Positions 42,431 through 64,000 of a stretch of DNA of 64,000 nucleotides are shown piece by piece (the stretch's first letter is position 1; each line of letters begins with the position of its first letter). Below the pieces are notes generated by a model, which saw only the letters and a list, made by a program, of their open reading frames with translations, was not told the DNA's origin and did no database searches. This stretch comes from Candidatus Latescibacterota bacterium (GTDB taxonomy: Bacteria; Latescibacterota; UBA2968; UBA8231). The translations under genes and the position numbers were made by a program. Where the stretch lies: assembly GCA_965203175.1 (NCBI GenBank), contig OZ241867.1, positions 1,312,001-1,376,000 of the forward strand, written 5' to 3'.

Positions 42431-45400
42431 GTGAACGACGCGAGCGGAGCCGCAAGATCCCCAAGACAGAGAAGCCCCTTTGATCACATCCTAGGACACC
42501 AGTACACGGTTTTCGACGGGCTGGCCGGGATGCAGGTGGAAGACATCTACCAAGATCAGCGCGGCCTCCTCTGGATCGCCACAGCCGACGGCGGCGTGAG
42601 CCGATTCGACGGAGCGCATTTCGATACCTTTGGCCTGTCGGACGGGCTCCCCAGTCTCACGGTAATGAGCATCGCCGAGGATCAAGACGGGCGACTGCTC
42701 TTCGGTACGCTGGGAGGTGGGATAGCTGCATACGACGGGCATGGCTTTCAGGTGTACACCACCGAGCACGGGCTGCCTTCCAACGACATAATGAGCCTGC
42801 AACCCCAAGCCGATGGTTCGATGCGAGTGCTGACCGACGCTGGGATAGGCTGGTTTGTCGAGGGGCGATGCGTAGAGTGCGTGACAGAAATTGCAGGTCA
42901 GCCGCTAGGGTGGGTGTACGACATGGTCACCGACACGACGGGTACGACGTGGCTGGCGACGCAGCAACGGGGGACCATCAGTCTGGACGGTCGGCGCATG
43001 AGCGCGAAGAACGGTGCAATGCAGTGGCCGTGGAAATTCGCTCAAGACGCCTCCGGCCCTCTGTGGATCGCCTTTCGCTACGTTGGTACCGAAGTCGTGA
43101 TAGGCCGCTACGATTCAGACAGCCAACAGCTCGACCTCATCAAGGCAGACGCGGCTATCGAGGGGACGGAGGCCGTAAATCACGGTACGCGCCATGTACG
43201 CTTGGACGATAAAGGCCGGTTGTGGATGGCTCGTCAGGGCGTGCTAGTGTACGACGGAGCCGACTGGCATTCGTTCTCGGCCGGTTTGCCGGATGTTCAC
43301 TTTTCGGAGGCGCGGCTGACCTACGAGGACCGCGAAGGAAATATCTGGGTGGGATTGTGGGGCGGCGGGCTAGTTTTTTGCGATCCGGTCAGTGTCCAGT
43401 TATACACCGGGGCCGACGGCCTGCCCGACCGCGAGGTCCACCAGCTAAGAGAAGACCACCAAGGTCGGATCTGGATCGGTACGATGGGAGGCCTAGCCTG
43501 TCTTGAAGACGGCCGGATTCGCTCAGTGGAGACCGGGCACAAGGTCTCGGCGTTGGCGATAGACTGCCAAGGGCAGGTCTGGCACGGGAGCCCCGAGGGC
43601 AAAGTAATTAAGGGAGTGGGGAAAGATGCCCAAGTGATCGAGGTGACAAAAGACAACTGCTACGACTACGAAGAAGTTAAGCTATACCCAGACCAAGAAG
43701 GGGGCATAAAGGTCGGCACTTCCGAGGGACGTTTGGGAAGGATAGAAGACGACCGTTTTATAGCGGAGGAGCAGGGGCCTGCCAATTGCCGAGTCGTGTT
43801 GCAGGATAGCGAAGGCACCTTGTGGATCGGTAGCTATGGGGCAACGCCGGCTCTGTACTATTACAAAGATGGCCATTTTCACGCATCTGATATGGCTGGG
43901 ATAGAAACCGTCGCTTACGTAAGTACATTGTGCGATTACGAAGGCACGCTTTGGGTTGGGACAGCCAACGGTCTTTTCGCCTTTGACTACCGCGCCCAGC
44001 AGGTGCGTCGGTTTACGGCAGACCAAGGAGACCTGTCCGTCAATAGCATCTTGGCTCTGGTAGCCGATTCTCATCAAGGGTGTCTGTGGATTGGGACCAG
44101 CGGCGGGGGTGTGATGAAGTACGATGGTCGAGTGTTTCAGAGCATCCGTTTGGGCAAATCCACCTTGGAGAATATCGTCGAGGCCATCCTGCGCGATAGT
44201 CGGGGCCGGTTGTGGTTCGGGACGAGGGCGGGGCTGATTGCGTATCAGCCTGGCAATACGCCCCCGGGTATCGTGATTCGCCAAGTCATGGCGGGGCGTC
44301 TGTTGGAGATGCCCCAAGCCGTGTCCTGTCCAGATAGCACCCCTGAGATTCAGTTCCACTTCCAGGGCCTCAGCTTCCGAAGCGGGGCCGAGCAGATGCG
44401 CTACAGCCATCGGCTCGTCAGCCACAGCCCGGCAGAAGAGTGGAGTGCGTTCACGTCTTCCAACAGAGTGTCGTACAACGGCGTACCGGTCGGCCAGTTC
44501 CGCTTTGAGGTACGGGTTTTAGATCGGGATGGCCTCATGTCGGAAGTCGCCAGCCTTGACGTACAGGTGTTCCCCGACGAGAAGAGCGTACGCCTCCAGC
44601 GTTTAGAACACATGCTGCAGGATGCGGATCAGGATTTTCTCAGCCAGAGCCAAGCCATGACCCAGTTCTTAGGAGAGGTCGCACAGATGGCCGAGACCGA
44701 TATGACGATGCTGGTGATGGGCGAGACCGGCGTGGGCAAGGGTGTACTCGCCCAGAGGATCCACAACCTGAGCCGACGCCGAGGGCAGCCCTTTATCGAA
44801 CTCAATTGCGGCTCCCTGCCCGCCGGACTGATCGAGAGCGAGTTGTTCGGCCACGAGCGAGGGGCCTTTACTGGTGCCGTGAAGCGGCATATCGGCTGTT
44901 TTGAACGGGCTAACTACGGCACCTTGTTCCTCGATGAAATCGGCGATCTGCCGTTGGAAGCCCAACGGGCACTGCTCCGCATTCTGGAGAATCGCTACCT
45001 GACCCGCGTCGGTGGCGAGCAGTCTATCCCAGTGGATGTGCGGGTGATTGCGGCGACCAACAAGGATCTGAAAGAGGCTATTGAGGTGGGGACGTTCCGA
45101 GAAGACCTGTTCTACCGCTTGAGCGCGTGGCCGGTGAAGCTGCCGCCGCTGCGGGAGCGCCGAGAGGATATTCCACTCTTGGCGGCGCATTTTGCGCGTC
45201 GGTATGCCCAAAATTTGCAGCGACCGGTGCCAGCGTTGGGCGACGGAGTGGTGAAGCATTTGCAGGCGTATGCGTGGCCGGGGAATGTGCGCGAGTTGGA
45301 GCACTTGATCCGGCGAGCGGTGGTGCTGTGCCGAGGGGAGGTTATTCAGGTGGAGGATGTGCCGCTGGCTGCTGAAGACGAGGCCAAAGAGGGGCCGTTT

Positions 45401-45580
45401 GCGCCGCCGGTTGAAGCCAAATTCAAAGACGAGAAACAGCAAATCGTGGAGGCGCTCCAAGTCTCCGAGGGGAGGATCTATGGAGAGCGGGGCGCGGCGC
45501 GGTTGTTGGGCATGAACCCGGAGCGACTGCGTTCCCGCATGCGCGTGTTCGGGTTGCAACGACCGAAAAAAAGGTCTTAA
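42431..45580 (+). CDS. Sigma54-dependent activator with N-terminal Reg_prop beta-propeller repeats and Y_Y_Y domain (copy 1)
   Basis: Repeated D..G.LWIGT..G blades, Y_Y_Y segment (YSHRL...Y..VPVG.FRFEVR..D), Walker A GETGVGK, ESELFGHERGAFTGA, FLDEIG, WPGNVREL, C-terminal HTH. Confidence 0.92.
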   Translation: MNDASGAARSPRQRSPFDHILGHQYTVFDGLAGMQVEDIYQDQRGLLWIATADGGVSRFDGAHFDTFGLSDGLPSLTVMSIAEDQDGRLLFGTLGGGIAAYDGHGFQVYTTEHGLPSNDIMSLQPQADGSMRVLTDAGIGWFVEGRCVECVTEIAGQPLGWVYDMVTDTTGTTWLATQQRGTISLDGRRMSAKNGAMQWPWKFAQDASGPLWIAFRYVGTEVVIGRYDSDSQQLDLIKADAAIEGTEAVNHGTRHVRLDDKGRLWMARQGVLVYDGADWHSFSAGLPDVHFSEARLTYEDREGNIWVGLWGGGLVFCDPVSVQLYTGADGLPDREVHQLREDHQGRIWIGTMGGLACLEDGRIRSVETGHKVSALAIDCQGQVWHGSPEGKVIKGVGKDAQVIEVTKDNCYDYEEVKLYPDQEGGIKVGTSEGRLGRIEDDRFIAEEQGPANCRVVLQDSEGTLWIGSYGATPALYYYKDGHFHASDMAGIETVAYVSTLCDYEGTLWVGTANGLFAFDYRAQQVRRFTADQGDLSVNSILALVADSHQGCLWIGTSGGGVMKYDGRVFQSIRLGKSTLENIVEAILRDSRGRLWFGTRAGLIAYQPGNTPPGIVIRQVMAGRLLEMPQAVSCPDSTPEIQFHFQGLSFRSGAEQMRYSHRLVSHSPAEEWSAFTSSNRVSYNGVPVGQFRFEVRVLDRDGLMSEVASLDVQVFPDEKSVRLQRLEHMLQDADQDFLSQSQAMTQFLGEVAQMAETDMTMLVMGETGVGKGVLAQRIHNLSRRRGQPFIELNCGSLPAGLIESELFGHERGAFTGAVKRHIGCFERANYGTLFLDEIGDLPLEAQRALLRILENRYLTRVGGEQSIPVDVRVIAATNKDLKEAIEVGTFREDLFYRLSAWPVKLPPLRERREDIPLLAAHFARRYAQNLQRPVPALGDGVVKHLQAYAWPGNVRELEHLIRRAVVLCRGEVIQVEDVPLAAEDEAKEGPFAPPVEAKFKDEKQQIVEALQVSEGRIYGERGAARLLGMNPERLRSRMRVFGLQRPKKRS

Positions 45581-45617
45581 AGGGAAAGTCGCGGCCAACT
45601 AGGACCATTGGGCTATT

Positions 45618-45650
45618 GGTGAAAAATCGTATTAAATACGGAATTTTTTA
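45618..45650. promoter_or_regulatory. Degenerate putative activator-binding site (UAS), copy 1
   Basis: GAAAAATCGTA and TACGGAA half-sites. TACG at 45637 is 136 bp upstream of the -24 element, as in the other copies. Confidence 0.5.
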
Positions 45651-45713
45651 GATCAACTTGTAACGACGGCGGACGGTACGCCTGATAAAAAGAAGCTTCA
45701 GGCTATATAAAAC

Positions 45714-45756
45714 TATGTTTTCCAATTCTTTAGGGCATATCCTAAAGGATTTTTTG
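45714..45756 (+). terminator. Conserved hairpin plus T-run overlapping an IHF-like site, copy 1
   Basis: AATTCTTTAGG-loop-CCTAAAGGATT-TTTT. Homologous to copies at 51234, 54603 and 61130. Confidence 0.6.
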
Positions 45757-45772
45757 TGCGGGGTCTGCTGTG

Positions 45773-45788
45773 TGGCACGAAACATGCT
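45773..45788 (+). promoter_or_regulatory. Sigma54 (-24/-12) promoter
   Basis: TGGCACGAAACATGCT versus consensus TGGCACGNNNNTTGCW. Confidence 0.8.
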
Positions 45789-45880: not shown

Positions 45881-48800
45881 ATGAAACGATTGCTAAAGTG
45901 GCAGATAGCTCTCTTAGCCGCATTATCTCTGCCTAGCTTCTGTGTGGCCCAAACGGATGCCTATAGACTTTTCGGCAATTCGATTCGCGTGGATCGGGCC
46001 TCGCACTGGGAGAACTGGATTTATCAGAACGACTTGGTTTCCCAATTGAATGTGCCAATCGGCGATGCGGATATTTTTCAGGTAGAGGCCAATGGGCTGC
46101 GGCCGGTATTCTTCCGCCGCAATATCAACGTGGCCCCGACGGCTGTCGATTTCACCTATCCCGATTTGGTCCGCGCTGGCGGTGATATAGTCTCTGGGGG
46201 TGCAACGGCCAAATCCAACGATGCCTTGGCTAATAATGTTATCGATGGCGACTTGAGCACCTTCTGGGAACCGGACACGCCGATCAGTTTTGCGAGTCGC
46301 TTGACTCGCCCCGGAGACTTCCATCTCGACGGCCTGCGCAACTGGGAAATCGAGATTGATCTAGGACGGTTGGTTTTTGCCGACAGCCTGACGATTATCT
46401 TTCCCGCTGGTCAGTTTGAGGACGAGTTTCTTGGCGAGCCGGTCAAGTCTTTCGTGCTTTTTGCCTCAATGGGCGAGCGCTTTCCCTTTCCTTTAGGCAA
46501 CAAGCTCAAGTTTTCCCTTATCGGTCAAGTCTCTACCGGTAGTGTAGGGGGTGAAACCGGTGCAGGGACGCTGGTTTCGGTACCCGGCACCGAAGGGCGC
46601 TATGTGCAAATGACCTTTCCGCTCTGGCCACTGGACCGAGCTGACTGGGACTTGGATGGCCGGCCCGATATCAGCGGAGCCTTCATCCATTGCGTCCGCA
46701 TTAAAATTACGGATTCAGACCTCTGGCACGACGCCTTTTTGGGTACGGGCGAAGAGGCACGTCTAGCCTATGAAGCATTGCCCCAAGATCAGCGCGGTGC
46801 GCTTGTTTATCAGCGCCAGACTGCCGGCGGGTTGCTCGTCGAAATCGAGGACGATACCAATCAGACCGCCAGCGAAAAATACCAAACCTTACCCGAAGAG
46901 AAGCGTGGCCCGGTCCTCTACTACAGCAAAGAGGTTCCCCGGATTGCCGAGGTTCAGGTCTGGGCTAAAGGCGACAACTACGCGCTGCAACCCGAAAGGC
47001 GCGGGGGGGCCTCGTTTGAAAACGGTGCCTTGGGTGCGCCCCATTTGGCCACGGATGGGCTGTACGACTCGGAGTGGCAGGCCAATACGTGGTCGCCGAT
47101 TTACGACAAGGGTACGGCTTGGTACGACTTAGGAGCCGTGTTTTGGGTCGATAATCTCTCGGTGGTCAACAAGCGCATCAACCAGAGCCACTATGGAGCC
47201 TTTTTGGGACCGGATATTTTGGTTTCCGACGGCACGTTGCTCAAACCTGTGAGTATGAACGACCGCGACGACTTTCCCCAACTCGAAGAAGCGCTCAAGT
47301 GGGACAACATCATCAGCGAGGAGCACGTCGATAACCACACTCCGATAGTGCGCATTTTTCAAGAGAACTTCCCCTATCGCAAGATTCGCTTTCTACAGAT
47401 TCGCGACATTGACGTCACCGGGGAAGTTTCGGGTCAGTACGGCCATCTGGCGACGTTGGGCGAGGTCCAGCTTTACGGCGAGGGATATCCAGTCAGCGTG
47501 TGGGCGTACTCGCCGCCGATCACGCTGACTGATTCGCGTGGCAATTTCATTCGCAAAACCCTGCCGCGCATCGCCTGGGAAGGCGATGTCATCGTCCACG
47601 AGACCGATCCGCTCACCGGCCAAGCCATCGAACGCATCGAGCCGCTGGGGCTTCACCCGGATGTCCGCTTGCAAATCCAGACCCGCACCTCTGAGCAGAC
47701 CGACACCAACTTCACATACTATCAGGTCGTGACCGTCGCTGGCAACGAAGAGCGCACGGAAGTGTCAAAGGAAGTCCACGATGAGATTGCCTTGGAGTGG
47801 ACGGCCTGGGAGATCTGGCAGACCCTGCCCGCCAGCCAGAAACACGCCTCGCGCACCGACGACGACGGCGACGGTCTGGTGGACGAGGATCGGATTGACC
47901 TGATTGACAACGATGGCGACGGTCTGGTGGACGAGGACGGCAGGAAGCTGCGCCGGGCACCGCGCTCGAGCTTTGCCAAAGACGGCGAGCTGGCGTTTGT
48001 CGGCTGGAGCGAGTGGAGCGAGAGCTACCTGCCGACCCATGGCGTCAACGAGGCGACCATCACCTCGCCCAGCCCGCGCAAGTTCGTTCAGGTACGAGTT
48101 AATATCTCCTCCGAGGATCCCTTCAAGACGGCGCGCATCCGCAGTTTGCGCATTGAGTTGGCACCACCGCTGTCGCTGGAGCTAGCTGGCGAGTTGGCGC
48201 TCCTCACCGACGAGGGAGTAGCGCGCGTGCCGACCGATTTGGGTGTCCTCCCTTCGGACTACACGCCGCCGCGCAATATAGACCCACTCGCGCCCCAGAA
48301 ATTTGCTTATTTCATTCGCGCTGCCGCGCCCGACCCGACCGATACAACGGTGCGCGACGGCTTTAACGAGGTGCTGGTTGTCGCGCCGCGCGATGCGCGC
48401 TTGACCGGTGTGCGCTTGGGGCAGGTCGCCATCGCTCGAACGCCCTCGCTGCTCAACCCAGAGCAAGTGCTGACCTCGGCGACGACCACGAAGTTTGACC
48501 GTGCCTTTGTCCTCGGCGACGACGGGGTCCTGCGCGATGCAGACGGCGCAGTGTTGGAACGCATGGCGACCGGCGCGGATTCGATCTGGGTGCGGTTTCC
48601 CTTTTCGCTCAATGCCGATCTACCAGCTGATCAGAACGCCCTCATTGAGGTGCAGTTTGCGTCGCAAAGCTTCCGCGAGGGCATTGAATTCGCCTCGTTT
48701 GTGCGCTCTTCAGGCTCGGAGGAAGGTGTATTCCAACGGGTGGACACCACCGATAAGGATGCGACCGAGTTGGTGGATTCTTCGACGGCGCAGGTCAGCT

Positions 48801-49141
48801 TGGTGGCGCTGCCGGGGTCTTTGATCCAAGACGTAATGCTAGCACCGGTTTTTACGCCCAACGGCGATGGGATCAACGATGAACTTTTGGTGCATTTCGT
48901 TTTGTTGAAGGTACAGGAGGAGCGTCCGTTAGACGTTGCATTGTACGATTTGGGAGGACGCTTGGTAGGTCAAGGGCAGGGCTCGGCGGTTGGTGGCAAG
49001 GTAGGGACGCAGGCGTTTGTGTGGGATGGACGGGATATGAATGGTCAGATTGTGCCGCCGGGGATCTATCTCTGTCAGATCAAGCTAGAAGCCGATGATC
49101 AAGCCAGCAAATTGACGCGACTCGTTCACGTGGCCTATTAA
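45881..49141 (+). CDS. Large secreted protein with Ca-binding-like DxDGDGLVDED repeats and C-terminal FlgD-Ig/CHU_C-like domain
   Basis: Signal peptide ...FCVA|QTD, discoidin-like IDGDLSTFWEP/IDLG segments, C-terminal FTPNGDGINDE...WDGRD..G..VPPGIY. Confidence 0.85.
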   Translation: MKRLLKWQIALLAALSLPSFCVAQTDAYRLFGNSIRVDRASHWENWIYQNDLVSQLNVPIGDADIFQVEANGLRPVFFRRNINVAPTAVDFTYPDLVRAGGDIVSGGATAKSNDALANNVIDGDLSTFWEPDTPISFASRLTRPGDFHLDGLRNWEIEIDLGRLVFADSLTIIFPAGQFEDEFLGEPVKSFVLFASMGERFPFPLGNKLKFSLIGQVSTGSVGGETGAGTLVSVPGTEGRYVQMTFPLWPLDRADWDLDGRPDISGAFIHCVRIKITDSDLWHDAFLGTGEEARLAYEALPQDQRGALVYQRQTAGGLLVEIEDDTNQTASEKYQTLPEEKRGPVLYYSKEVPRIAEVQVWAKGDNYALQPERRGGASFENGALGAPHLATDGLYDSEWQANTWSPIYDKGTAWYDLGAVFWVDNLSVVNKRINQSHYGAFLGPDILVSDGTLLKPVSMNDRDDFPQLEEALKWDNIISEEHVDNHTPIVRIFQENFPYRKIRFLQIRDIDVTGEVSGQYGHLATLGEVQLYGEGYPVSVWAYSPPITLTDSRGNFIRKTLPRIAWEGDVIVHETDPLTGQAIERIEPLGLHPDVRLQIQTRTSEQTDTNFTYYQVVTVAGNEERTEVSKEVHDEIALEWTAWEIWQTLPASQKHASRTDDDGDGLVDEDRIDLIDNDGDGLVDEDGRKLRRAPRSSFAKDGELAFVGWSEWSESYLPTHGVNEATITSPSPRKFVQVRVNISSEDPFKTARIRSLRIELAPPLSLELAGELALLTDEGVARVPTDLGVLPSDYTPPRNIDPLAPQKFAYFIRAAAPDPTDTTVRDGFNEVLVVAPRDARLTGVRLGQVAIARTPSLLNPEQVLTSATTTKFDRAFVLGDDGVLRDADGAVLERMATGADSIWVRFPFSLNADLPADQNALIEVQFASQSFREGIEFASFVRSSGSEEGVFQRVDTTDKDATELVDSSTAQVSLVALPGSLIQDVMLAPVFTPNGDGINDELLVHFVLLKVQEERPLDVALYDLGGRLVGQGQGSAVGGKVGTQAFVWDGRDMNGQIVPPGIYLCQIKLEADDQASKLTRLVHVAY

Positions 49142-49428
49142 CAAAGGCAGCAGTTCGGACCAGAAGTCCCGATAGGAGCGTAATGGTACCATACGAAGAC
49201 TTCACTTGGGCACCCAACAGCACGAGGATGGCCTTCACTTCTTTTACCACTAGCGACGGCTTTAGGGAGATATGGGCCGTTGATATAGACGGGAGCCACT
49301 TGGTCAATCTGACCAACGGCTTAGGTGGACACTCTCCCGCTTGGCAATCGGTGCTCCCTACTGCCACGAGCGTCGAGGCCCAGTCGTGGGGACGGATCAA
49401 ATCGCTGCTTTCAACGGGTATCCGTTAA
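49141..49428 (+). pseudogene. 3' fragment of a TolB-like array paralog
   Basis: Only the last blade and tail remain (TWAPNS.RMAF...EIWAVDIDGSHLVNLTNGLGGHSPAWQ...TSVEAQSWGRIK). No signal peptide. Confidence 0.8.
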
Positions 49429-49582
49429 TGGCTGCGACGAGGTCAGCTAGGGGTAGTCTCTGGAGTATATCTATAAGGCCGAGATGGACGGATAGAAGCC
49501 AAGAAGACGAAGAAGTTGCCGTGATGAGTGGTTGAAAATGGAGTGTGAAAGTGTCCTCAAAACTCACCGAAAGGAGTTTCCC

Positions 49583-50107
49583 ATGAAAACGCGAGTTGTG
49601 CATCAAGCTCGTCTCGTGTTAATCGCCTGTTTGATAGCTTTTGGCCTGTTGGGTATTAGCCATGCCCAAAAAAATGGACATCCGCCTTGGGTCTGGAGTG
49701 TAGCGTATTCGCCAGATGGAGGCACGCTGGCTAGCGGGGGTACCGACGAGACGATACGCCTTTGGGATGTGGCGACGGGAGAAATTCTTGCCACGCTGAG
49801 CGGGCATACGGACTGGGCCTGCGGTGTCGCCTATTCACCGAATGGCCGTACGCTGGCTAGTGGGGGCGGCGACAACAAGGTTCGTCTTTGGGATGTGGCG
49901 ACAGGAGGCCTCCTCGCCACGCTGAGCGGGCATACAAAAGCGATCACTAGCGTGGCGTATGCACCGGCTGGGGGCACGTTGGCTAGCGGGGGGTACGACA
50001 ACAATGGGGTGCGTTTCTGGGACATCGCGTCTTATATCGGCGGGGAGCCGACAGCCGTGGCCGAGACCTCATGGGGTCAGGTCAAAGTGCTGCTTTCAGT
50101 CCCGTGA
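49583..50107 (+). CDS. Secreted WD40-repeat protein (3 repeats) with WGxIK tail
   Basis: SD AAAGGAG, signal ...ISHA|Q, VAYSPDG.TLASGG.D.TIRLWD repeats, ends EPTAVAETSWGQVK. Confidence 0.85.
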   Translation: MKTRVVHQARLVLIACLIAFGLLGISHAQKNGHPPWVWSVAYSPDGGTLASGGTDETIRLWDVATGEILATLSGHTDWACGVAYSPNGRTLASGGGDNKVRLWDVATGGLLATLSGHTKAITSVAYAPAGGTLASGGYDNNGVRFWDIASYIGGEPTAVAETSWGQVKVLLSVP

Positions 50108-51130: not shown

Positions 51131-51306
51131 TTCGAAAAGATCGTAGGCGGCCAACACGGAAAGCCGTGGACAACCTTGCGCTGACGGCTGAAGCTGCACA
51201 TCGTAAAAAGAATCATCTCATATTTTGAATGTTATGTTTTTCAATCCTTTAGGGTGCCCCTAAAGGATTTTTTGTCGGCGGTTGTATCTTAGGGGTGGGT
51301 CATGTG
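51131..51306 (+). promoter_or_regulatory. Second copy of the regulatory cassette, with a degenerate sigma54 core
   Basis: CACGGAAAGCCGTG at 51155, hairpin AATCCTTTAGGG/CCCTAAAGGATT, expected promoter position reads AGGGGTGGGTCATGTG. Confidence 0.6.
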
Positions 51307-54645: not shown

Positions 54646-54661
54646 TAGGTGGCCGAATTTT

Positions 54662-54677
54662 TGGCACGGAATATGCA
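54662..54677 (+). promoter_or_regulatory. Sigma54 (-24/-12) promoter
   Basis: TGGCACGGAATATGCA. Confidence 0.82.
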
Positions 54678-55629: not shown

Positions 55630-55678
55630 CATAGATCAACCTTCTTATTCAATCTATCCATCCGAAAGGAACCACGTT

Positions 55679-55777
55679 ATGAACTATCGGTCTCTACTAA
55701 TCGCCTGCTTGGCAACGCTGGGTCTAGCTGTTGAATGTTGCTTTTCACTCACCATCCAGAAAGGATGTGAACTATGA
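55679..55777 (+). pseudogene. 5' stub of an array paralog (signal peptide only)
   Basis: Full conserved RBS region and MNYRSLLIACLATLGLAV, then homology stops abruptly near 55732. Confidence 0.8.
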
Positions 55778-56526
55778 CACATATTATTGCAGTCTCGTGC
55801 GCCCTCGCTTTGTGGGCCTTGCCCGCCGCTGCTCAAAACGACTGGCTGGGCACTTGGGAAGCTCACGTCGATCAAGTCGAGCACTACGTCTTCTACGACA
55901 AAAACGGTCGTGAGGTCACACAAGCGAAGTACGACAAGCTCATCCCTAGCTTTCAGGGGTCCATCGACACCCTGCGCATCAACGACGCGGACTGGATCAT
56001 CATCCACATGACCTTCAACGTCGATGGCACCTTTCAAATCCGCGAAGAGTTCCTCGCGAATGATGGCGACCTGTTCGCCAGCTTAGATGAAATGCTAGCC
56101 GCAAAGCTGGAACTCGACTCAATCAACGCCTTTCCTGCGGTAGCCACCATGACCTACGAGACAACCGGCACCTATGGCATCGATGGCGATACCATGTCGT
56201 GGGAAGCCGACGAACAGACTCTGTACGCAGGTGACACAGAGGCCAACGCATTCTTCGCCGCAGTCGCCTCGCAGCTAGCCGAGCAGTCAGAGCTTCCCGG
56301 AGACATAGGCCCCGACTTTGTAGAGGAATTTGGCGACAACTTGGGCAGAGTGCAGACGACGTCTGGCTCGTATGTTTACCAAGTTGAGGACGGCAGCCTC
56401 TTTCTCTCGCGCAACGGCAACTCCCTCTTGCAAGCGAGTTGGTTGAGTTCCATAGTACTGTCCCGCGTCGCCGACGACACGGCCGTGACCCCTACTAGTT
56501 GGGGCAGCCTGAAAGCAAGCAACTAA
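55774..56526 (+). CDS. Unrelated secreted acidic protein with WGxLK tail
   Basis: Signal ...LPAAA|QND, no PD40 motifs, ends DDTAVTPTSWGSLKASN. Confidence 0.8.
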   Translation: MTHIIAVSCALALWALPAAAQNDWLGTWEAHVDQVEHYVFYDKNGREVTQAKYDKLIPSFQGSIDTLRINDADWIIIHMTFNVDGTFQIREEFLANDGDLFASLDEMLAAKLELDSINAFPAVATMTYETTGTYGIDGDTMSWEADEQTLYAGDTEANAFFAAVASQLAEQSELPGDIGPDFVEEFGDNLGRVQTTSGSYVYQVEDGSLFLSRNGNSLLQASWLSSIVLSRVADDTAVTPTSWGSLKASN

Positions 56527-56713
56527 GCAGGCGAAGCGATGAATAGGCTGACCGGGCCAACAATGGACACGCCGCCGGCACTTGGATAATTCCCACGTTG
56601 TTTCTCAGACTCCAAGGATGACTTTTAAATTTCAAACGGATACACTACCAAGCACATACTTGGGCGCTCAGGGATATAAATCCCATTCCTAATCTTCTGA
56701 AAGGAGCCATATT

Positions 56714-57625
56714 ATGAACTATCGATCTCTACTGATCGTCTGCTTGGCAACGCTGGGACTAGCCGTCGCTGGCTGGGGGCAAGCAGATGGTAAAATCGCA
56801 TTTATCTCCGACCGCGAGGGGCACTCTGACGTGTGGATTATGAATGCCGATGGGAGCGACCCCGTGAATTTGACCCAAGGACGGGATTGCGCTAGTCCGG
56901 TTTGGTCCCCGGATGGCACACAGATCGCCTATATTGCCAGCGGCGAAATCTGGTTGATGGGTGCCGATGGCAGCAATTCGCAACAGGTGACAGATGATGC
57001 CGTCGATAAAGCGCGGCTTTGGTGGTCTGAAGACGGGAGTAGCATTTACTATGTCGCCGTCATGACCGAGCCGCTGCCAGACGAGTGGGCTCCTGATGCG
57101 TTCGTTGCGGCGCTGGACGGCAGTGGCCCGTCGCCTGCGGACTGGAGAGAGGTATATGACCGCTTCCTCCCTGGTCTTTCCCCAGACAGAACCATAGCAG
57201 CATGGCTCACGTTGATAGAGCACGAGGATGCAGAGGGCCTTATCTATGCTTACTTCAACTTTTACAGTTACGGTGATCCCGATGATCACAGGCACCCAGG
57301 TCTTCTCCTGCCTGAATTGCGCCAGAATAAAGATATATACGGCGAACCCTACGATCATTGGCGGACTTTTCCTACTTGGTCGCCCAACGGCATAAGCATC
57401 GCCTTCGCTGGTTTTCTCGATGTCATTGGCCAGTTCGATATTTGGGCTGCTGATGTAGCAGAAGCAGATGAGAAAGGAAGGATCAAATTGACTGACTTGA
57501 CTAGCTTGACTAATGGTTTAGGTGGACGTGAGCCCGCTTGGCAACCGGTTCTCCCTTCTGCTACTGCCACGAGCGTCGAGGCCCAGTCGTGGGGACGGAT
57601 CAAATCGCTGCTTTCAGTACCATAG
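56714..57625 (+). CDS. Secreted TolB/PD40-like beta-propeller protein, array member
   Basis: Same architecture, closest to 50159 and 59959. Confidence 0.88.
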   Translation: MNYRSLLIVCLATLGLAVAGWGQADGKIAFISDREGHSDVWIMNADGSDPVNLTQGRDCASPVWSPDGTQIAYIASGEIWLMGADGSNSQQVTDDAVDKARLWWSEDGSSIYYVAVMTEPLPDEWAPDAFVAALDGSGPSPADWREVYDRFLPGLSPDRTIAAWLTLIEHEDAEGLIYAYFNFYSYGDPDDHRHPGLLLPELRQNKDIYGEPYDHWRTFPTWSPNGISIAFAGFLDVIGQFDIWAADVAEADEKGRIKLTDLTSLTNGLGGREPAWQPVLPSATATSVEAQSWGRIKSLLSVP

Positions 57626-57677
57626 ACATATATCTAACTTTCTCATTCAATGCTATCCATCCGAAAGGAGCTACGTT

Positions 57678-58643
57678 ATGAACTATCGATCTCTACTAAT
57701 CGCCTGCTTGGCAACGCTGGGGCTGGCCGTCGCTGGCTGGGGGCAAGCCGACGGCAAAATCGCATTTACCTCGTGGCGCGAGGGGTCCGGGGACGTGTGG
57801 ATTATGAATGCGGATGGAAGCGACCCCGTAAACTTAACCCAAGGTCGGCATGGGCATTGCGTTGACTTGGTTTGGTCTCCAGATGGCACGAAGATCGCCT
57901 ATCTCGCCTTTAGTGACGATCCCGAGCCCGATTCTGATGGTGCCATTTGGGTCGATTATTCCGTTGCCGATATATGGGTGATGGACGCCGATGGTGGCAA
58001 CTCGCAACAAGTGGGATCTCTAACTCCCGGAAATGAAGTACTTTTTTGGGCTGAAGACGGAAGTAGCGTTTACTACTACCTGCGGGACCCCCAACAGCTA
58101 TTCGCTGTGGCGCTGGACGGCAGTGGTTTCTCACCTATATCTCGGACGGACGGGACTGGAATAGTCCGCCGGTTCTTCGATAATTCCAATCTTTCTCCAG
58201 ACGGAACCAAGCGGGCAACCGTCGTGTTGCAGGACGACGAGGGCAATGCCTATCTACGCCTAGCTGGCTACACCCCTATACGCCTAGCTGGCCTAGCTGG
58301 CTACGCCCCTACTGAGGGGCCGCAGCCTTCTGACCAGATAGAAGATTTCAGGGAGATTCCCCTTCCCGATCTACCCTATCAACAAGCTGAACTTGAACCC
58401 GGCTGGTATAGAGTGGCTCACTCTACTTGGTCGCCTGACAGCATGAGAATCGCCTTCTATGCCGCTAACGAGAAAGGGTACAGGGAGGTTTGGGTTGTTG
58501 GTATAGACGGGAGCAACTTGGTTAATCTGACCGACGGTTTGGGCGGAGATTATCCCGCTTGGCAACCCGTCGTCCTTTCTGCTGCCGCCACGAGCGTCGA
58601 AGCTCAGTCGTGGGGACGGATCAAAGCGCTGCTTTCTCATTAA
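57678..58643 (+). CDS. Secreted TolB/PD40-like beta-propeller protein, array member
   Basis: Start trimmed to MNYRSLL, tail TSVEAQSWGRIK. Confidence 0.88.
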   Translation: MNYRSLLIACLATLGLAVAGWGQADGKIAFTSWREGSGDVWIMNADGSDPVNLTQGRHGHCVDLVWSPDGTKIAYLAFSDDPEPDSDGAIWVDYSVADIWVMDADGGNSQQVGSLTPGNEVLFWAEDGSSVYYYLRDPQQLFAVALDGSGFSPISRTDGTGIVRRFFDNSNLSPDGTKRATVVLQDDEGNAYLRLAGYTPIRLAGLAGYAPTEGPQPSDQIEDFREIPLPDLPYQQAELEPGWYRVAHSTWSPDSMRIAFYAANEKGYREVWVVGIDGSNLVNLTDGLGGDYPAWQPVVLSAAATSVEAQSWGRIKALLSH

Positions 58644-58655
58644 TCGCGCCTCGTG

Positions 58656-58690
58656 CGTAGGAGCGGTGCGGAGCGCAAGCCGCCCCTACG
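58656..58690. repeat. GTAG-type REP-like palindrome, copy 2
   Basis: CGTAGGAGCGG...CCGCCCCTACG. A half copy also lies at 60937-60961. Confidence 0.7.
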
Positions 58691-58766
58691 TGCCTTGATG
58701 GGAAGCGAAAAAAACGACCAAGCTGCCATAAGGGATGAGGTCTAATCTTCTGAAAGGAGGCACGTT

Positions 58767-59801
58767 ATGAACTATCGGTCTCTACTGATCGTCTGCTTGG
58801 CAACGCTGGGGCTGGCCGTCACTGGCTGGGGGCAAATCGACGGTAAGGATGTTGACAATCCGGCCGGTCCGTCGTTGTCGGCGGGGACGAGCAGTAATGA
58901 GGAGGCTTGGGTCGTCGGGGCCATACGCCGCCTGACCGATCACTCGGCCAATTACAGGTCTCCGTCTTGGTCTCCGGATGGCCAGCATATCGTCTTCGAT
59001 TCCAACCGCCGCGGCAAGGCGGATATTTACGTAATGGGTGCGGATGGGAGCAACCCCCGCCGCCTGACCGACCACCCAGATTGGGCCGCGTATCCCTCTT
59101 GGTCTCCGGATGGCCAGCACATTGCCTTCATATCCGAGCACGACAGCAGCGATGTAGGTTCGGATATTTACGTGATAGGTGCGGATGGGAGCAACCGCCG
59201 CAACCTGACCAACGACTCGGAGTGGCACTATTCTCCGTCTTGGTCTCCCGATGGCCGGCACATCGCCTTCGTGACCGTGGCCGGGCACTACGGAGAGTCT
59301 AATATTTACGTAATGGATTTGGATGGGAGCGGCCCCCGCCGCCTGATAGCCCACCCAGGGCCGATCCGGTCTCCGTCTTGGTCGCCGGATGGCCAATACA
59401 TCGCCTTCGATTCCGACCGCGACGGCAACATTTACGTAATGGGTTCGGATAGGAGCTACCGCCGCCGCCTGACCGACCACCCGGCCGACGATAGGTCTCC
59501 GTCTTGGTCTCCGGATGGCCGGCACATCGCCTTCGAGTCCAATCGCGACGGCGACTGGGAGATCTACGTGATGGATTCGGATGGGAGCAATCCCCGCCGC
59601 CTGACCGACCACCCGGCCGACGATAGGTCTCCGTCTTGGTCTCCGGATGGCCGGCACATCGCCTTCGAGTCCAATCGCGACGGCAACTGGGAGATCTACG
59701 TGATGGACATCGCGTCTCATATCGGCGGGGAGCCGACGGCTGTGGCCGAGACCTCGTGGGGACGGATCAAGAGGCATTTGCAAGATCATGCCGGCAACTA
59801 A
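58767..59801 (+). CDS. Secreted PD40-repeat protein (6 regular repeats) with WGxIK tail
   Basis: Six PSWSPDG.HI.F repeats, array-type signal peptide, tail GGEPTAVAETSWGRIK. Confidence 0.9.
   Translation: MNYRSLLIVCLATLGLAVTGWGQIDGKDVDNPAGPSLSAGTSSNEEAWVVGAIRRLTDHSANYRSPSWSPDGQHIVFDSNRRGKADIYVMGADGSNPRRLTDHPDWAAYPSWSPDGQHIAFISEHDSSDVGSDIYVIGADGSNRRNLTNDSEWHYSPSWSPDGRHIAFVTVAGHYGESNIYVMDLDGSGPRRLIAHPGPIRSPSWSPDGQYIAFDSDRDGNIYVMGSDRSYRRRLTDHPADDRSPSWSPDGRHIAFESNRDGDWEIYVMDSDGSNPRRLTDHPADDRSPSWSPDGRHIAFESNRDGNWEIYVMDIASHIGGEPTAVAETSWGRIKRHLQDHAGN
59462..59707 (+). repeat. Near-identical 132-bp-period intragenic tandem duplication (one propeller blade)
   Basis: 59462-59575 and 59594-59707 differ at one visible position (GGCGAC/GGCAAC). 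Confidence 0.85.
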
Positions 59802-59958
59802 GCAGAACAGGTTGAGTGCATTTGTCGGCTCCTCCAGCGCCTGCCAGAGGAGTTCCGCCGAGCGCTGGACAACCTAGCCATCGTCGTCGAGGACTCATAA
59901 CAACTAAAGGCTGCGTAACGTCAGTTATTCAATCTATCCATTCGAAAGGAGCCGCGTT

Positions 59959-60924
59959 ATGAACTATCGAGCCATATTTGTCGTCTGCTTGGCAACGCTG
60001 GGACTAGCTGTCGCAGGCTGGGGGCAAGCCGACGGTAAAATCGCATTTATCTCCGACCGCGAGGGGTACTCTGACGTGTGGATTATGAATGCGGATGGGA
60101 GCGACCCCGTAAACCTGACCCAAGGACGGGATTGCGCTAGCCCGGCTTGGTCTCCAGATGGCACGAAGATCGCCTATATTGCCAGCGGCGAAATCTGGTT
60201 GATGGACGCCGCCGGCAGCAATCCGCAACAGGTGACAGACGATGCCGTCGATAAAGCGCGGCTTTTTTGGTCTGAAGACGGGAGTAGCATTTACTATGTC
60301 GCCGTCCCGACTTGGCCGCTTCCGGACGAGTGGGCCCCTGATGCGTTCCTTGCGGAGTTGGATGGCAGTGGCTCGTCGCCCGTGGACTGGAGAGAAGTAT
60401 ACAGCCGCTTCCTCCCTGGTGTTTCCCCTGACGGAAGCCAACTAGCAACTGTCACGTTGTGGGATGGAGAGGGGGGCCATAGGCATGGTCCCCGTGTTCT
60501 CCGGCCGGGCGAGCCCGGCACTGTCCGGCCAGGCGAGCCCTACACAGCAAAGCACAGGCGCTACGAAGCGGGCCGTGTCCATGCTCTCTTCTACATCGGC
60601 ACCAGTGCCTTTGATCACATGCACTCAGGTGATCTCCTGCCTGAATCGCTGCAGAATAAACTGATATATACCGAACCCTACGAAGAGTGGCGAACCTACC
60701 CTACTTGGTCGCCCGACGGCCTGAGAATAGCCTTCGCTAGTTTTCTCGATTTCATGGGTCAGTTTGAGATTTGGGCTGCTGATACAGACGGGGACAACTG
60801 GGTCGAGTTGACCAACGGCTTGGGAGGACATGAGCCCGCTTGGCAACCTGTCGTCCCTTCTGCTACTGCCACGAGAGTAGAGTCTCAGCCGTGGGGACAG
60901 ATCAAAGCGCTGCTTTCTCATTAA
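59959..60924 (+). CDS. Secreted TolB/PD40-like beta-propeller protein, array member
   Basis: Close paralog of 50159 with an inserted loop, tail TRVESQPWGQIK. Confidence 0.88.
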   Translation: MNYRAIFVVCLATLGLAVAGWGQADGKIAFISDREGYSDVWIMNADGSDPVNLTQGRDCASPAWSPDGTKIAYIASGEIWLMDAAGSNPQQVTDDAVDKARLFWSEDGSSIYYVAVPTWPLPDEWAPDAFLAELDGSGSSPVDWREVYSRFLPGVSPDGSQLATVTLWDGEGGHRHGPRVLRPGEPGTVRPGEPYTAKHRRYEAGRVHALFYIGTSAFDHMHSGDLLPESLQNKLIYTEPYEEWRTYPTWSPDGLRIAFASFLDFMGQFEIWAADTDGDNWVELTNGLGGHEPAWQPVVPSATATRVESQPWGQIKALLSH

Positions 60925-61009: not shown

Positions 61010-61065
61010 CACGGAAAGTCGTGGAAAATCCACGGAAAATCGTGAATATTCCACGAAAAAACGTG
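61010..61065. promoter_or_regulatory. Three phased palindromes CACG-N6-CGTG (putative UAS)
   Basis: Copies start at 61010, 61031 and 61052, a 21-bp period. The last copy is 136 bp upstream of the -24 element. Confidence 0.75.
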
Positions 61066-61129
61066 GAAAACTTTGCGCCGACGGCTGAGACTGTGCATCG
61101 CAGAAAGGCTCGTTTCATATTTTAAGTGT

Positions 61130-61171
61130 TATGTTTTTCAAGCCTTTAGGGTATTACTAAAGGCTTTTTTG
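61130..61171 (+). terminator. Conserved hairpin plus T-run overlapping an IHF-like site, copy 4
   Basis: AAGCCTTTAG/CTAAAGGCTT-TTTT, a compensatory change relative to the other copies. Confidence 0.62.
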
Positions 61172-61187
61172 TCGGCGATCGTATTTT

Positions 61188-61203
61188 TGGCACGGAATGT
61201 GCC
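61188..61203 (+). promoter_or_regulatory. Sigma54 (-24/-12) promoter
   Basis: TGGCACGGAATGTGCC. Confidence 0.78.
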
Positions 61204-61256: not shown

Positions 61257-62291
61257 ATGAACAATCGGTCTCTACTGATCGCCTGCTTGGCAACGCTGGG
61301 GCTGGCCGTCGCTGGCTGGGGGCAAGCCGACGGTAAGGATGTTGACAATCCGGCCGATCCGTCGCTGTCGGCGGGGATTGGGCAAGCGGTGACGAGCAGT
61401 GGTGGGGAGGCTTGGGTCGTCGGAGCCATACGCCGCCTGACTGACTATTCGGCCAGCTACAGCTCTCCGTCTTGGTCCCCGGATGGTCAGCACATCGCCT
61501 TTGGGTTCGAGCGCGACGGCCGGGCTAAGATTTACGTGATAGGTTCGGATGGGAGCGACTTCCGCCGCTTGACCGACCACCCGGCTTGGGCCGCGCTTCC
61601 CACTTGGTCCCCGGATGGTCAGCACATCGCCTTCGTGTCTGAGCGCGGCGTCAGCGATATTTACGTGATAAGTTCGGATGGGAGCGACCGCCGCAATCTG
61701 ACCAACGATTCGCATTGGGACTGGTCTCCGTCTTGGTCTCCAGATGGTCGGCACATCGCCTTCGTGTCCGGGCGCGGTAGCTACGGCAAGGCTGAGATTT
61801 ACGTGATAGATTCGGATGGGAGCAACTCTCGCCGCCTGACCGACCACCCGGAGCAGGTCGATTCTCCCACTTGGTCCCCGGATGGTCAGCACATCGCCTT
61901 CGTGTCCGAGCGCGGCGGCAGGGCTGGGATTTACGTGATGGGATCGGATGGGAGCAACCCTCGCCGCCTGACGGACCCCTCGGCCGACTACAAGTCTCCG
62001 TCTTGGTCTCCAGACGGCCAGTACATCGCCTTTGAGTCCGAGTGGTACGACAGGGTTGGGATTTACGTGATGGATTCGGATGGGAGCAACCCCCGCCGCT
62101 TGACGGACCCCTCGGCCGACTACAGGTCTCCGTCTTGGTCTCCGGATGGTCGGTACATCGCCTTCGAGTCCAACCGCGACGGCGACTGGGGGATTTACGT
62201 GATGGACATCGCGTCTTATACCGGTGGGGAGCCGACGGCTGTGGCCGAGACCTCGTGGGGACGGATCAAATCGTTGCTTTCAACCCCATGA
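61257..62291 (+). CDS. Secreted PD40-repeat protein (6 regular repeats) with WGxIK tail
   Basis: Paralog of 58767, tail GGEPTAVAETSWGRIKSLLSTP. Confidence 0.9.
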   Translation: MNNRSLLIACLATLGLAVAGWGQADGKDVDNPADPSLSAGIGQAVTSSGGEAWVVGAIRRLTDYSASYSSPSWSPDGQHIAFGFERDGRAKIYVIGSDGSDFRRLTDHPAWAALPTWSPDGQHIAFVSERGVSDIYVISSDGSDRRNLTNDSHWDWSPSWSPDGRHIAFVSGRGSYGKAEIYVIDSDGSNSRRLTDHPEQVDSPTWSPDGQHIAFVSERGGRAGIYVMGSDGSNPRRLTDPSADYKSPSWSPDGQYIAFESEWYDRVGIYVMDSDGSNPRRLTDPSADYRSPSWSPDGRYIAFESNRDGDWGIYVMDIASYTGGEPTAVAETSWGRIKSLLSTP

Positions 62292-62336: not shown

Positions 62337-63281
62337 ATGAACTATCGGTCTCTACTGATTGTCTGTTTGGCAACGCTAGGGCTAGCCATCGCTGGCTGGG
62401 GGCAAGCAGATGGTAAAATAGCGTTTATCTCCGACCGCGAGGGGCACAAGGACGTTTGGATTATGAATGCGGATGGGAGCGACCCCGTGAGCCTAACCCA
62501 AGGGCAGTATTGCGCTAGCCCGGCTTGGTCCCCGGATGGCACGAAGATCGCCTATATAGACATTGGTGCCGATCATTCTGGTAGTGATGTCTGGGTGGTA
62601 GACGCCGCCGGCGGCAATCTGCAACAACTGACAGGCAAGCCAGTGACGGAATACATAGCCAGGGGAGCTCTTTTTTGGTCTGAAGACGGAAGTAGCATTC
62701 GCTTCTACGCGTTGGGCCGCACAGACATATTCGCTGTGGCGCTGGACGGCAGTGGATCCTCACGCATGGAATGGACGGAGGGGGCTTTGGAAATCCTCCG
62801 CTTCCGAAACCACCACCATCTTTCTCCAGACGGAACCAAACGAGCCTCCGTCGCCTTGCCGCGTGATGACGTAGAAGGCCAAGCTCTCTTCATGATCTAC
62901 AATGTCGAAGACAGGCAGACCACGGTCGCCCGGGCCATTACCCTGTCCGACCAACCTAACGTCGATCTCTCTGCTCTGGATCGCGCCGCTTGGTTTTACC
63001 CTTCTTTTCCCCTTACTTGGGCACCCAACGGCACGAGGGTAGCCTTCACTTCGTACACCGTTCGCGAAAGGACTGACACTCCTTCCCCCAACGACTTTTC
63101 CTATTCCGAAGCCACTGGGGAGATTTGGGCCGTTGATATAGACGGGAGCAACTTGGTCGAGTTGACCAACGGCTTGGGTGGATATTCTCCCGCTTGGCAA
63201 CCAGTTTCCTCTTCTACTATTGCTACAAGTGTCGAAACCCAGTCGTGGGGACGGATCAAATCGCTGCTTTCAACCCCATGA
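62337..63281 (+). CDS. Secreted TolB/PD40-like beta-propeller protein, array member
   Basis: Conserved ends, variable centre, tail TSVETQSWGRIK. Confidence 0.88.
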   Translation: MNYRSLLIVCLATLGLAIAGWGQADGKIAFISDREGHKDVWIMNADGSDPVSLTQGQYCASPAWSPDGTKIAYIDIGADHSGSDVWVVDAAGGNLQQLTGKPVTEYIARGALFWSEDGSSIRFYALGRTDIFAVALDGSGSSRMEWTEGALEILRFRNHHHLSPDGTKRASVALPRDDVEGQALFMIYNVEDRQTTVARAITLSDQPNVDLSALDRAAWFYPSFPLTWAPNGTRVAFTSYTVRERTDTPSPNDFSYSEATGEIWAVDIDGSNLVELTNGLGGYSPAWQPVSSSTIATSVETQSWGRIKSLLSTP

Positions 63282-63326
63282 CATACATCTAACCTTCTCA
63301 TTCATCCTTATGAAAGGAGCCGAGTT

Positions 63327-64000
63327 ATGAACTATCGATCCATATTGATCGCCTGCTTAGCAACGCTGGGGTTAGCCGTTGCTGGCTGGGGGCAAGCCGA
63401 CGGTAAAATCGCGTTTATCTCCGACCGCGAGGGATACGAGGACGTGTGGATTATGAATGCGGATGGGAGCGATCCCGTAAACCTAACCCAAGGACGGCAT
63501 TGCACTACCCCAGCTTGGTCCCCGGATGGCACGCAGATCGCCTATATCTACCTCGACGATTATCCCCATGGTCGGTACGGTGGAGAGATTTGGTTGATGG
63601 ATGCCGACGGCGGCAATCCACAGCAGCTAACAGACGATTCCGTCGATAAAACATCGCTTTCGTGGTCGGCCGACGGGAGTAGCATTTACTATGTCGTCAG
63701 GTGGACGGCGGAAATGACTAAGGAGTCGGAGGCGGGTGAGAGGGACGGCCCTGATGCGTTTGTTATGGCGCTGGACGGCAGTGGCCCTTCGCCCGTGGAC
63801 TGGCGAGAGGTGCCCCACTTCCGTCACTCCAGTCTTTCCCCGGACGGAACCAAAGAAGCCATCGTCGTGTTGCGGGAAAAAGGGGACGCAGAGAATCTCG
63901 CCCGCCTCTATGTCCGCGATGCCAATGAAGACGAGTACTTTATCGCCCGGTCCACCGGCAAGTACCCGGGTATTCCTCTGCTTGGCTTACCCCGGAACGC
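63327..64000 (+). CDS. Secreted TolB/PD40-like array member (runs off window end)
   Basis: SD GAAAGGAG, then ATG AAC TAT CGA (MNYRSILIACLATLGLAVAGWGQADGKIAFISDREG). Frame appears open to the window end. Confidence 0.85.
   Translation, partial: MNYRSILIACLATLGLAVAGWGQADGKIAFISDREGYEDVWIMNADGSDPVNLTQGRHCTTPAWSPDGTQIAYIYLDDYPHGRYGGEIWLMDADGGNPQQLTDDSVDKTSLSWSADGSSIYYVVRWTAEMTKESEAGERDGPDAFVMALDGSGPSPVDWREVPHFRHSSLSPDGTKEAIVVLREKGDAENLARLYVRDANEDEYFIARSTGKYPGIPLLGLPRN

Follow-up and report, generated by a model that had tools for sequence, protein, structure and literature searches.

Propeller-sensor activators predicted to control operons of exported proteins, and a candidate C-terminal tag, in an expanded module family of Latescibacterota

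The final third of a 64,000-nucleotide (nt) stretch of DNA from a Candidatus Latescibacterota bacterium (assembly GCA_965203175.1, contig OZ241867.1), referred to below in its full length as the window, raises the question of whether two large paralogous regulator genes and the runs of exported-protein genes among which they stand form a coherent system. The window spans positions 1312001-1376000 of a single-contig 6.58-Mb genome of 59% G+C. We consider it likely that the region holds copies of a module that couples a sigma-54 activator with a propeller sensor to a regulatory cassette and an operon of exported proteins, with a short C-terminal tail on many of these proteins forming a separate layer. 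Judged from sequence, the unit would be a lineage-expanded repeated module, of which the region contains two copies and one orphan promoter unit. An earlier note on this DNA had placed all the genes on one strand and had described two activator paralogs alternating with blocks of secreted-protein genes. Both descriptions hold, in that every long open reading frame (ORF) with a family match, and thus every credible gene, from 41210 to the window end lies on the + strand, and the two activators do alternate with same-strand genes for signal-peptide proteins. Long − strand ORFs in 41210-64000 overlap + strand genes and were rejected as shadows. Two antisense ORFs at 58782-59789 (−, 335 amino acids [aa]) and 61272-61892 (−, 206 aa) run across six-bladed PD40 genes and are likewise read as repeat shadow frames rather than genes. 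The features, in window coordinates, are as follows.

42431-45580, +: act1, activator of 1049 aa, assigned by Pfam, PDB sequence match and helix-turn-helix (HTH) class; it starts 30 nt past a purM-like gene
45620-45787, +: cassette 1, with a palindromic CGTAT-type enhancer (45620-45650), a hairpin and T run (45724-45751) and the −24/−12 element TGGCACGAAACATGC (45773-45787)
45881-49141, +: 1086-aa signal-peptide protein, first gene past cassette 1, with a weakly CHU_C/FlgD_ig-like C terminus (type IX secretion system [T9SS] type)
49183-49428, +: PD40 gene remnant, the last 81 codons, with the tail kept
49532-50107, +: WD40 protein with signal peptide and tail
50159-51022, +: PD40 propeller protein with signal peptide and tail
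51155-51293, +: degenerate cassette, with one half-site and a hairpin terminator (51243-51269) and lacking a −24/−12 element; it closes block 1 before act2
51345-54461, +: act2, activator of 1038 aa, or 1059 aa from an alternative upstream TTG start at 51282
54486-54676, +: cassette 2, with tandem CGTAT-type repeats (54486-54541), a hairpin (54613-54639) and the −24/−12 element TGGCACGGAATATGC (54662-54676)
54736-60924, +: block 2, six genes with signal peptide and tail, namely PD40 (54736-55629), a 250-aa protein without family match (55774-56526) and PD40 (56714-57625, 57675-58643, the six-bladed 58767-59801, and 59959-60924)
61011-61202, +: cassette 3, with CGTGGA-type repeats (61011-61071), a hairpin (61140-61166) and the −24/−12 element TGGCACGGAATGTGC (61188-61202); no activator gene lies upstream
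61257-62291, 62337-63281 and 63327 to beyond the window (ending at genome position 1376241), +: block 3, PD40 genes with tail

The two regulators are 63% identical to each other, and Pfam finds Reg_prop, Y_Y_Y, Sigma54_activat (PF00158; 223 and 234 bits, 2e-66 and 8e-70) and AAA_lid_14 in both, along with Walker A (GETG[VT]GKG), ESELFGH and GAFTGA motifs. Together with the one rpoN gene of the genome (438 bits, above the curated cut-off), this bears out their earlier identification as sigma-54 activators. All their scores against NCBIfam equivalog models fall far under the cut-offs. The C-terminal HTH is matched weakly by HTH_8 in act2 (E 0.0095, below cut-off), with no such match listed for act1; many homologs carry PF02954, and a conserved C-terminal motif, AARLLGM-x-PE[RK]LR-x-R, co-varies with the DNA sites described below. 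Residues 1-720 of act1 match the periplasmic sensors of hybrid two-component systems (HTCS) in PDB, namely 3v9f (E 3e-42), 4a2l and 3ott. No membrane segment was detected in either protein, the maximal 19-residue Kyte-Doolittle means being 1.13 (act1) and 1.21 (act2), and HisKA, HATPase_c, Response_reg and HTH_18 are absent among their Pfam matches. Given this sensor match and the lack of a hydrophobic segment of membrane grade, act1 and act2 are predicted to be soluble, cytoplasmic one-component sigma-54 activators with an HTCS-type propeller sensor.

On what DNA might such activators act? With at most one mismatch allowed, the window contains the pattern TGGCAC-N5-TTGC 15 times, a count that none of 100 shuffles reached (mean 5.0). 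The 11 + strand matches of the region comprise three in intergenic DNA (45773, 54662 and 61188), seven within PD40 coding sequences and one within act2; the seven PD40-internal matches, of the ...GATCGC type, were rejected as promoters and are taken as coding coincidence. The sole exact match of the window, at 27625 (−), lies inside a sulfatase ORF, and two adjoining sulfatase genes (Sulfatase plus SGSH_C) occupy 25123-28076 (−). Upstream of every intergenic match come repeated or palindromic half-sites, followed by a hairpin of 10-12 pairs with a T run. The earlier note had the three blocks start with the same cassette, and three complete arrays of enhancer, hairpin and −24/−12 element are indeed present; the enhancers, however, are not alike, with CGTAT half-sites in cassettes 1 and 2 and CGTGGA in cassette 3. 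No other terminator-like site in 45000-64000 has a stem as long as those of the three cassette hairpins and of a fourth hairpin at 51243, and these four stand after act1, block 1, act2 and block 2. They are therefore read as putative intrinsic terminators that would end each unit ahead of the promoter that follows. When 23 cassettes from this genome and 19 relatives are aligned, the promoter-less one at 51230 among them, the GG of the −24 and the TG of the −12 element are invariant and the distance from hairpin to promoter is fixed, while 97% of the cells of the hairpin are paired, with changes on both sides at two pairs. The hairpin also contains a conserved TTCAA-N4-TTA stretch, which we take to resemble the IHF consensus, and an additional DNA-bending role is possible.

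The same arrangement recurs well beyond the window. By tblastn, the genome encodes nine activator paralogs (62-90% identical) and two distant ones (about 30%), and each of the nine has a cassette 3' of it. Cassettes lacking an adjoining activator lie at genome positions 1373000 (the third of the window), 2464954, 2460359 and, in part, 4979855. A match to the activator at E <= 1e-100 was obtained in 33 of 41 genomes (40 relatives and this one); the family is present in 23 of 24 congeners, with 1-14 copies each, and in 8 of 12 genomes of a sister family, as more distant members. At all 19 congener loci the activator stop codon is followed by half-site repeats, hairpin and −24/−12 element; counting this genome's own, 16 of 20 loci have the last in its strict form, and in the other 4 it is one base off. 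The linkage of activator to cassette, which the earlier note had offered for checking in relatives, is thus present at 19/19 close loci and, within this genome, at each of the 9 copies. The sister-family loci show the same order of elements with other palindromes. At more distant loci (L035-L043, from sister family f2 and others) the activators are ~1060-1100 aa long, and a palindrome, for example CCGTATATGG or GTTATAACG, a T-rich hairpin and a −24/−12 element follow ~205-225 nt past the stop codon, in genomes that have no tail. One module of the present genome, M4 (genome 3320833-3323455), has ORFs of 379 and 424 aa that are about 88-90% identical to act1, next to a cassette and an FG-GAP/redoxin cargo that look intact, and may be a recently broken activator copy.

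As to how far the family extends taxonomically, a search of representative proteins returned many proteins of 1000-1200 aa matching the sensor end and AAA+ domain at 35-57% identity. The named close homologs of the activator carry labels of Gemmatimonadota metagenome-assembled genomes, and one Reg_prop+Sigma54 cluster in the Atlas is labelled Candidatus Latescibacterota. No match to the sensor part outside the phylum was seen in 80 loci from many phyla among the matches listed, which were seeded with two AAA+ motifs and so are an improper sample of this question.

If each cassette serves the activator beside it, the recognition helix of the HTH and the half-sites of the enhancer should vary together. 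We compared them across 27 modules, 25 of which could be assigned to classes; the split M4 was excluded from this count and fits in a separate comparison. Helix and site class agree in 25/25 classed modules: the LRSRMR helix goes with CGTAT sites in 13/13 modules, LRYRMQ with [CT]GTGGA sites in 5/5 and LRYRMRKH with CGT[TG]CA sites in 7/7, and two more Y-type helices pair with the [CT]GTGGA and CGT[TG]CA types of site. On a tree built from the sensor part only, helix class and site class each change at least 7 times, and in 5/5 phylogenetically independent pairs with unlike helix classes the sites are unlike in the same way. A relative's locus (L016) and M4 have activators that are 89-90% identical to act1 overall and yet have the other helix together with the other sites. 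By this putative code cassettes 1 and 2 fit act1 and act2, which both belong to the LRSRMR class, while cassette 3, with its CGTGGA sites, would fit activators of the M2/M4 type encoded ~0.9 and 1.9 Mb away.

The genes placed behind these promoters, both first and later ones, all encode N-terminal signal sequences. In the window they amount to the 1086-aa protein, one WD40 protein, nine PD40 proteins, the 250-aa protein without a family match and the PD40 remnant; past the window, block 3 continues with three FG-GAP/T9SS genes and then one further tail gene. The remnant at 49183-49428 and the promoter-less cassette at 51155-51293 are signs of continuing turnover within the array. The 1086-aa protein scores 26.3 bits against CHU_C (cut-off 27), has no WG.[IVL]K tail, clusters with 57 proteins that resemble T9SS C-terminal domains, and has an ortholog 3' of the activator in a relative's locus, L017. 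In the other modules the first gene encodes either an FG-GAP/T9SS protein or an exported protein with a terminal redoxin/AhpC-TSA domain. Among 19 loci of relatives, the first recognizable gene 3' of the activator is of the PD40-tail type in 4, the FG-GAP/T9SS type in 4 (with 3 more further downstream), the redoxin type in 4 and the 1086-aa type in 1, the remaining 3 being unassigned (one of these with just 327 nt of flank). Even orthologs of act1 (86-95% identical) precede three different first genes. The FG-GAP proteins of the modules carry the T9SS C-terminal domain, and the small tail proteins have no such match in Pfam or NCBIfam. Hence, the earlier view of a module dedicated to tail-tagged propellers has to be given up, given that its cargo also includes FG-GAP proteins with a T9SS C-terminal domain, redoxin fusions and the 1086-aa protein. 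Seen from the other side, 16 of the genome's 21 PD40-tail genes do lie within activator modules.

The PD40 proteins themselves had been described as a diversifying repertoire. Among the short paralogs the mean pairwise column identity is 0.6-0.8 at the ends versus 0.02-0.5 in the indel-rich middle, and the median synonymous divergence (dS) is 0.41 and 0.42 at the ends versus 0.96 in the middle. Median ratios of nonsynonymous to synonymous divergence (dN/dS) are 0.22 for the N-terminal end, 0.55 for the middle and 0.43 for the C-terminal end. The description is apt as far as conserved ends and a highly variable middle are concerned; with dN/dS below 1, the diversity amounts to mosaic divergence, and positive selection on the middle is not supported at a median of 0.55. 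The ends are homogenized, with the middle left free to drift. Identity with TolB was also discarded, in that TIGR02800 gives 71-272 bits against a cut-off of 343 and covers propeller blades only.

The tail has a reach quite different from that of the modules. The consensus T-[AS]-V-E-x-x-[SP]-W-G-x-[IV]-K is present in 10/10 complete small genes of the window and in an eleventh once it is completed from the genome, and all ten have WG.[IVL]K in their last 25 residues, in agreement with the shared tail described in the earlier note. Across 35,586 stop-to-stop ORFs of at least 80 aa from the genome, 92 of 107 occurrences of WG.[IVLM]K fall in the last 25 residues. About 81-92 exported proteins bear the tail, nearly all with a signal peptide and belonging to at least 8 unrelated families, which include a CBM9-like family of ~300 aa (35 members), PD40 (21), Cache (7), the 250-aa family of the window (5), FGE-sulfatase, fasciclin, LTXXQ, HmuY and WD40. 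An alignment of 25 sequences shows no variation at W, G and K; past this K another 3-11 residues complete the tail, which has no hydrophobic stretch. With a profile made from this alignment, the tail was recovered in 94 of 168 genomes of the phylum, including all 75 other genomes of the window's own family and most genomes of seven more families; it was found in 0/31 and 0/22 genomes of two sister families and in 1/13, 0/1 and 0/5 of three others. Of 20 loci from four distant families 16 were pattern-positive; in 16/16 of these the stop codon comes 3-5 residues after the motif, and the four misses are all from the weakest-scoring family. Five genomes of other phyla, reached via named loci, did not yield the tail. 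No model of it exists in Pfam, none was matched in NCBIfam at E up to 10 by four 40-residue C termini, and neither a paper with the motif nor one on tags of this phylum turned up in the literature searched. In an AlphaFold model of a 303-aa PD40 protein (mean confidence score, pLDDT, 73.6) the body is a propeller, and residues 283-300 form a low-confidence helix past a disordered linker. That the tail closes the propeller was rejected, as it lies outside the modelled propeller and is also found on non-propeller folds.

A sigma-54-like site within 300 nt upstream is present at 5/81 tail genes, all of them PD40, versus 38 of 5073 crudely called genes genome-wide. This excludes the tail genes at large as a sigma-54 regulon; the tail is thus one layer and the regulon another, the two meeting in the PD40 genes. 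The genome has a PorU above cut-off with a PorV-like neighbor and 103 Por_Secre_tail matches. All families with several tail-positive genomes have a canonical PorU, the tail-less sister families f2 and f4 have partial, sub-threshold PorU-like matches only, and in three other families PorU is present with the tail scarce or absent. This distribution, which reflects few independent events, is compatible with a dependence of the tail on type IX secretion. The CBM9-like tail family (35 members) occurs in a recurring type of locus (e.g., genome 96385-103397, 911206-918330 and 2791416-2796268) together with proteins of ~900-1000 aa lacking a Pfam match (14 paralogs, with C termini like ...YAGL), a ~600-aa F5/8-type-C protein with a CHU_C/FlgD_ig C terminus, a DUF6785/DUF6784 membrane protein, a lipoprotein-like protein with a peptidyl-prolyl isomerase domain and TPR proteins. 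Outside the sigma-54 modules, a gene of the T9SS type is also paired with one of the tail type in the window at 30193-33008 (−), where the gene for a 743-aa protein with DUF362 and FlgD_ig lies directly upstream of that for a 190-aa tail protein. An FGE-sulfatase-type protein encoded at another place in the genome bears the tail.

Taking these findings together, we propose the following course of events. The N-terminal 720 residues of the activator, comprising a double propeller and Y_Y_Y, would act as a sensor in the cytoplasm. Its binding sites would be repeats of AAAGTCGT plus 2-3 variable bases within about 330 nt past the activator stop codon, followed by a strong intrinsic terminator that would end the transcript of the activator or of the preceding block, and that might also serve as a bending site, with the −24/−12 promoter ~27 nt beyond it. 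On binding an intracellular ligand, the activator would assemble on its own sites and open the sigma-54 promoter, switching on an operon of Sec-exported proteins, mainly PD40 propellers in the window, and in other modules FG-GAP propellers that bear a type IX secretion domain, together with thioredoxin-like fusions that are exported as well. We infer the ligand control and the transcription from the predicted promoters from this anatomy, and the labels "ligand-inducible" and "binding proteins" of the earlier note would have the same standing.

Could the region instead be no system at all, with an ordinary island of "eukaryote-like" repeat-protein paralogs, generic sigma-54 regulators present by chance and cassettes that are mere by-products of segmental duplication? 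The blocks, cassettes and genes are plainly duplicated, the gene remnants and the cassette without a promoter testify to turnover, the low dS at both PD40 ends is what gene conversion would leave, and repeat proteins are described as common in sponge-associated Latescibacterota in the part of PMC12993501 consulted. We nonetheless hold this to be unlikely: the cassette is kept behind activators 56-70% identical in other species where the flanks have diverged, with GG and TG unvaried in the 23 sequences, enhancer class tracks HTH class over at least 5 independent contrasts, and even distant sister-family activators keep the layout with palindromes of their own. A related objection is that the enhancer 3' of an activator is not the target of that activator, serving other regulators or the autoregulation of the upstream gene, with the cargo under a common trans regulator. 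Cassette 3 and those at genome 2464954 and 2460359 stand without an adjoining activator, so trans control does exist, and a AAAGTCGT core and the hairpin are common to all modules. As a general account we regard this as very unlikely in view of the complete agreement between adjoining HTH and half-site and of the two recombinants, L016 and M4. Several observations do weigh against the proposed module of activator, cassette and operon. With five pairs the best p value that the sign test can reach is 0.0625, which is the value obtained, and the HTH coding region lies within roughly 50-150 bp of the enhancer, such that, being physically close, helix and sites could be shifted jointly by one recombination with no functional tie between them. 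Module M3 has no obvious gene past its promoter, the activator of M4 is split in two ORFs, and no promoter could be recognized for act2 itself. The hairpin is conserved mostly at the sequence level, with two pairs showing double changes, and it may hence be more than, or other than, a terminator. The cytoplasmic form of the Reg_prop/Y_Y_Y sensor has no studied precedent in the literature searched. Finally, an RNA search reached three metatranscriptome runs (two sponge, one coral) with 5% of the sampled words, a small share, and the matches on 44001-64000 are assembled contigs, mostly 90-95% alike (that is, from relatives), which carry no ends, strands or levels.

For the tail, the most likely role suggested by its position is that of a sorting or attachment signal acting after Sec export, and it is probably a new C-terminal tag; we infer this function from its distribution. 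Another possibility, to which we grant a minor though real share of credence, is that it is a structural or regulatory element, such as a peptide by which the proteins dock to a shared periplasmic partner, or a mark recognized by a tail-specific protease. Its length of ~18 residues with no hydrophobic anchor and its prediction by AlphaFold as a detached amphipathic helix would suit such a role, and the ~900-aa proteins without a Pfam match and the T9SS-type proteins encoded next to the CBM9-like tail genes offer possible partners. That it sits without exception at the very C-terminal end, in proteins of no fewer than 8 unrelated folds and almost always together with a signal peptide, is rather the known pattern of sorting tags, and the presence of canonical PorU in all families with several tail-positive genomes, with partial matches in the tail-less f2 and f4, also argues against it. 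Extending the sorting-signal reading further, one may tentatively picture the tail, T-A-V-E-x-x-S-W-G-x-I-K-x-L-F-[KR], as the address label of an undescribed Latescibacterota-wide route that would carry Sec-exported proteins to the surface or to vesicles and would depend on, or ride along with, the type IX machinery; the modules would then be ligand-specific switches choosing which tail-tagged or T9SS-tagged propellers are displayed, with orthologous switches swapping cargo through recombination where the gene ends are conserved. We put this forward as a speculation more doubtful than probable.

How do these modules compare with systems already known? One-component enhancer-binding proteins (EBPs) with an N-terminal ligand-sensing domain form the class of XylR/DmpR, NorR, FhlA and PrpR. 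Like these, the present activators have an AAA+ domain with GAFTGA, a putative Fis-type HTH at the C terminus, repeated sites upstream of a −24/−12 promoter and no receiver domain, with the sensor fused straight to the ATPase and the target operon adjoining the regulator gene. Unlike these, in which the sensors are V4R, GAF or PAS domains, they have a double Reg_prop propeller with Y_Y_Y, and their family, in which three HTH/half-site classes occur, numbers 9 copies here and as many as 14 in a congener. With the HTCS of Bacteroides (BT4663; PDB 4a2l/4a2m, 3v9f and 3ott) they share the sensor of Reg_prop blades and Y_Y_Y as well as the genomic logic of one sensor per adjoining exported-protein locus and many paralogs per genome. 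In HTCS, however, the sensor is periplasmic, and after it come a membrane helix, a histidine kinase, a receiver and an HTH of AraC type, none of which occurs in these activators; moreover, the output here is through sigma-54, and the targets are propeller and redoxin proteins rather than SusC/D-type loci.

For the tail, the closest parallel is the PEP-CTERM/PrsK-PrsR system, for which the part of Haft et al. (2006; PMC1569441) consulted reports a sigma-54 site at 99 of 167 PEP-CTERM genes. As described there, that system likewise combines a short C-terminal tag on exported proteins with an enhancer, a sigma-54 site and a dedicated activator for many genes. The PEP-CTERM tag, though, has a transmembrane helix, an Arg cluster and an exosortase partner, whereas the present tail has neither helix nor Arg cluster; PrsR is, according to the same part of that source, a response regulator with a kinase, and a sigma-54-like site stands here at just 5/81 tail genes. 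The cargo of T9SS (TIGR04183/CHU_C/FlgD_ig) offers a second parallel, in that the FG-GAP cargo of the modules has such a domain and the genome has PorU; the T9SS C-terminal domain is, however, a beta-sandwich of ~70-100 residues, as opposed to a tail of ~18 residues that matches no T9SS model. In the part of the literature consulted, two propeller domains that resemble the BT4663 sensor are described for PorZ, a component of T9SS, and a BT4663-like fold would thus be found also in the secretion system that exports part of the regulon's cargo. In sum, the regulatory logic is familiar. What the literature and databases searched do not describe is the cytoplasmic placement of the predicted propeller sensor, a family so large and so insulated and, most of all, the tail.

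Elsewhere in the window, at 34001-36000, G+C falls to 0.50 versus ~0.6 nearby, and overlapping ORFs without a Pfam match lie on both strands at 35103-36188.

For the biology of this uncultured phylum, the modules would mean that the fold with which HTCS of gut Bacteroides sense glycans has found a second use, as a one-component sensor in the cytoplasm. They also provide a testable case of insulation within a large family of sigma-54 activators, with three variants of the recognition helix and three of the half-site, each beside its own promoter. The tail, for its part, is a candidate new protein-sorting signal, which about 81-92 exported proteins per genome carry and which 94 of 168 genomes of the phylum possess, and the machinery that handles it could be traceable by phylogenetic profiling.

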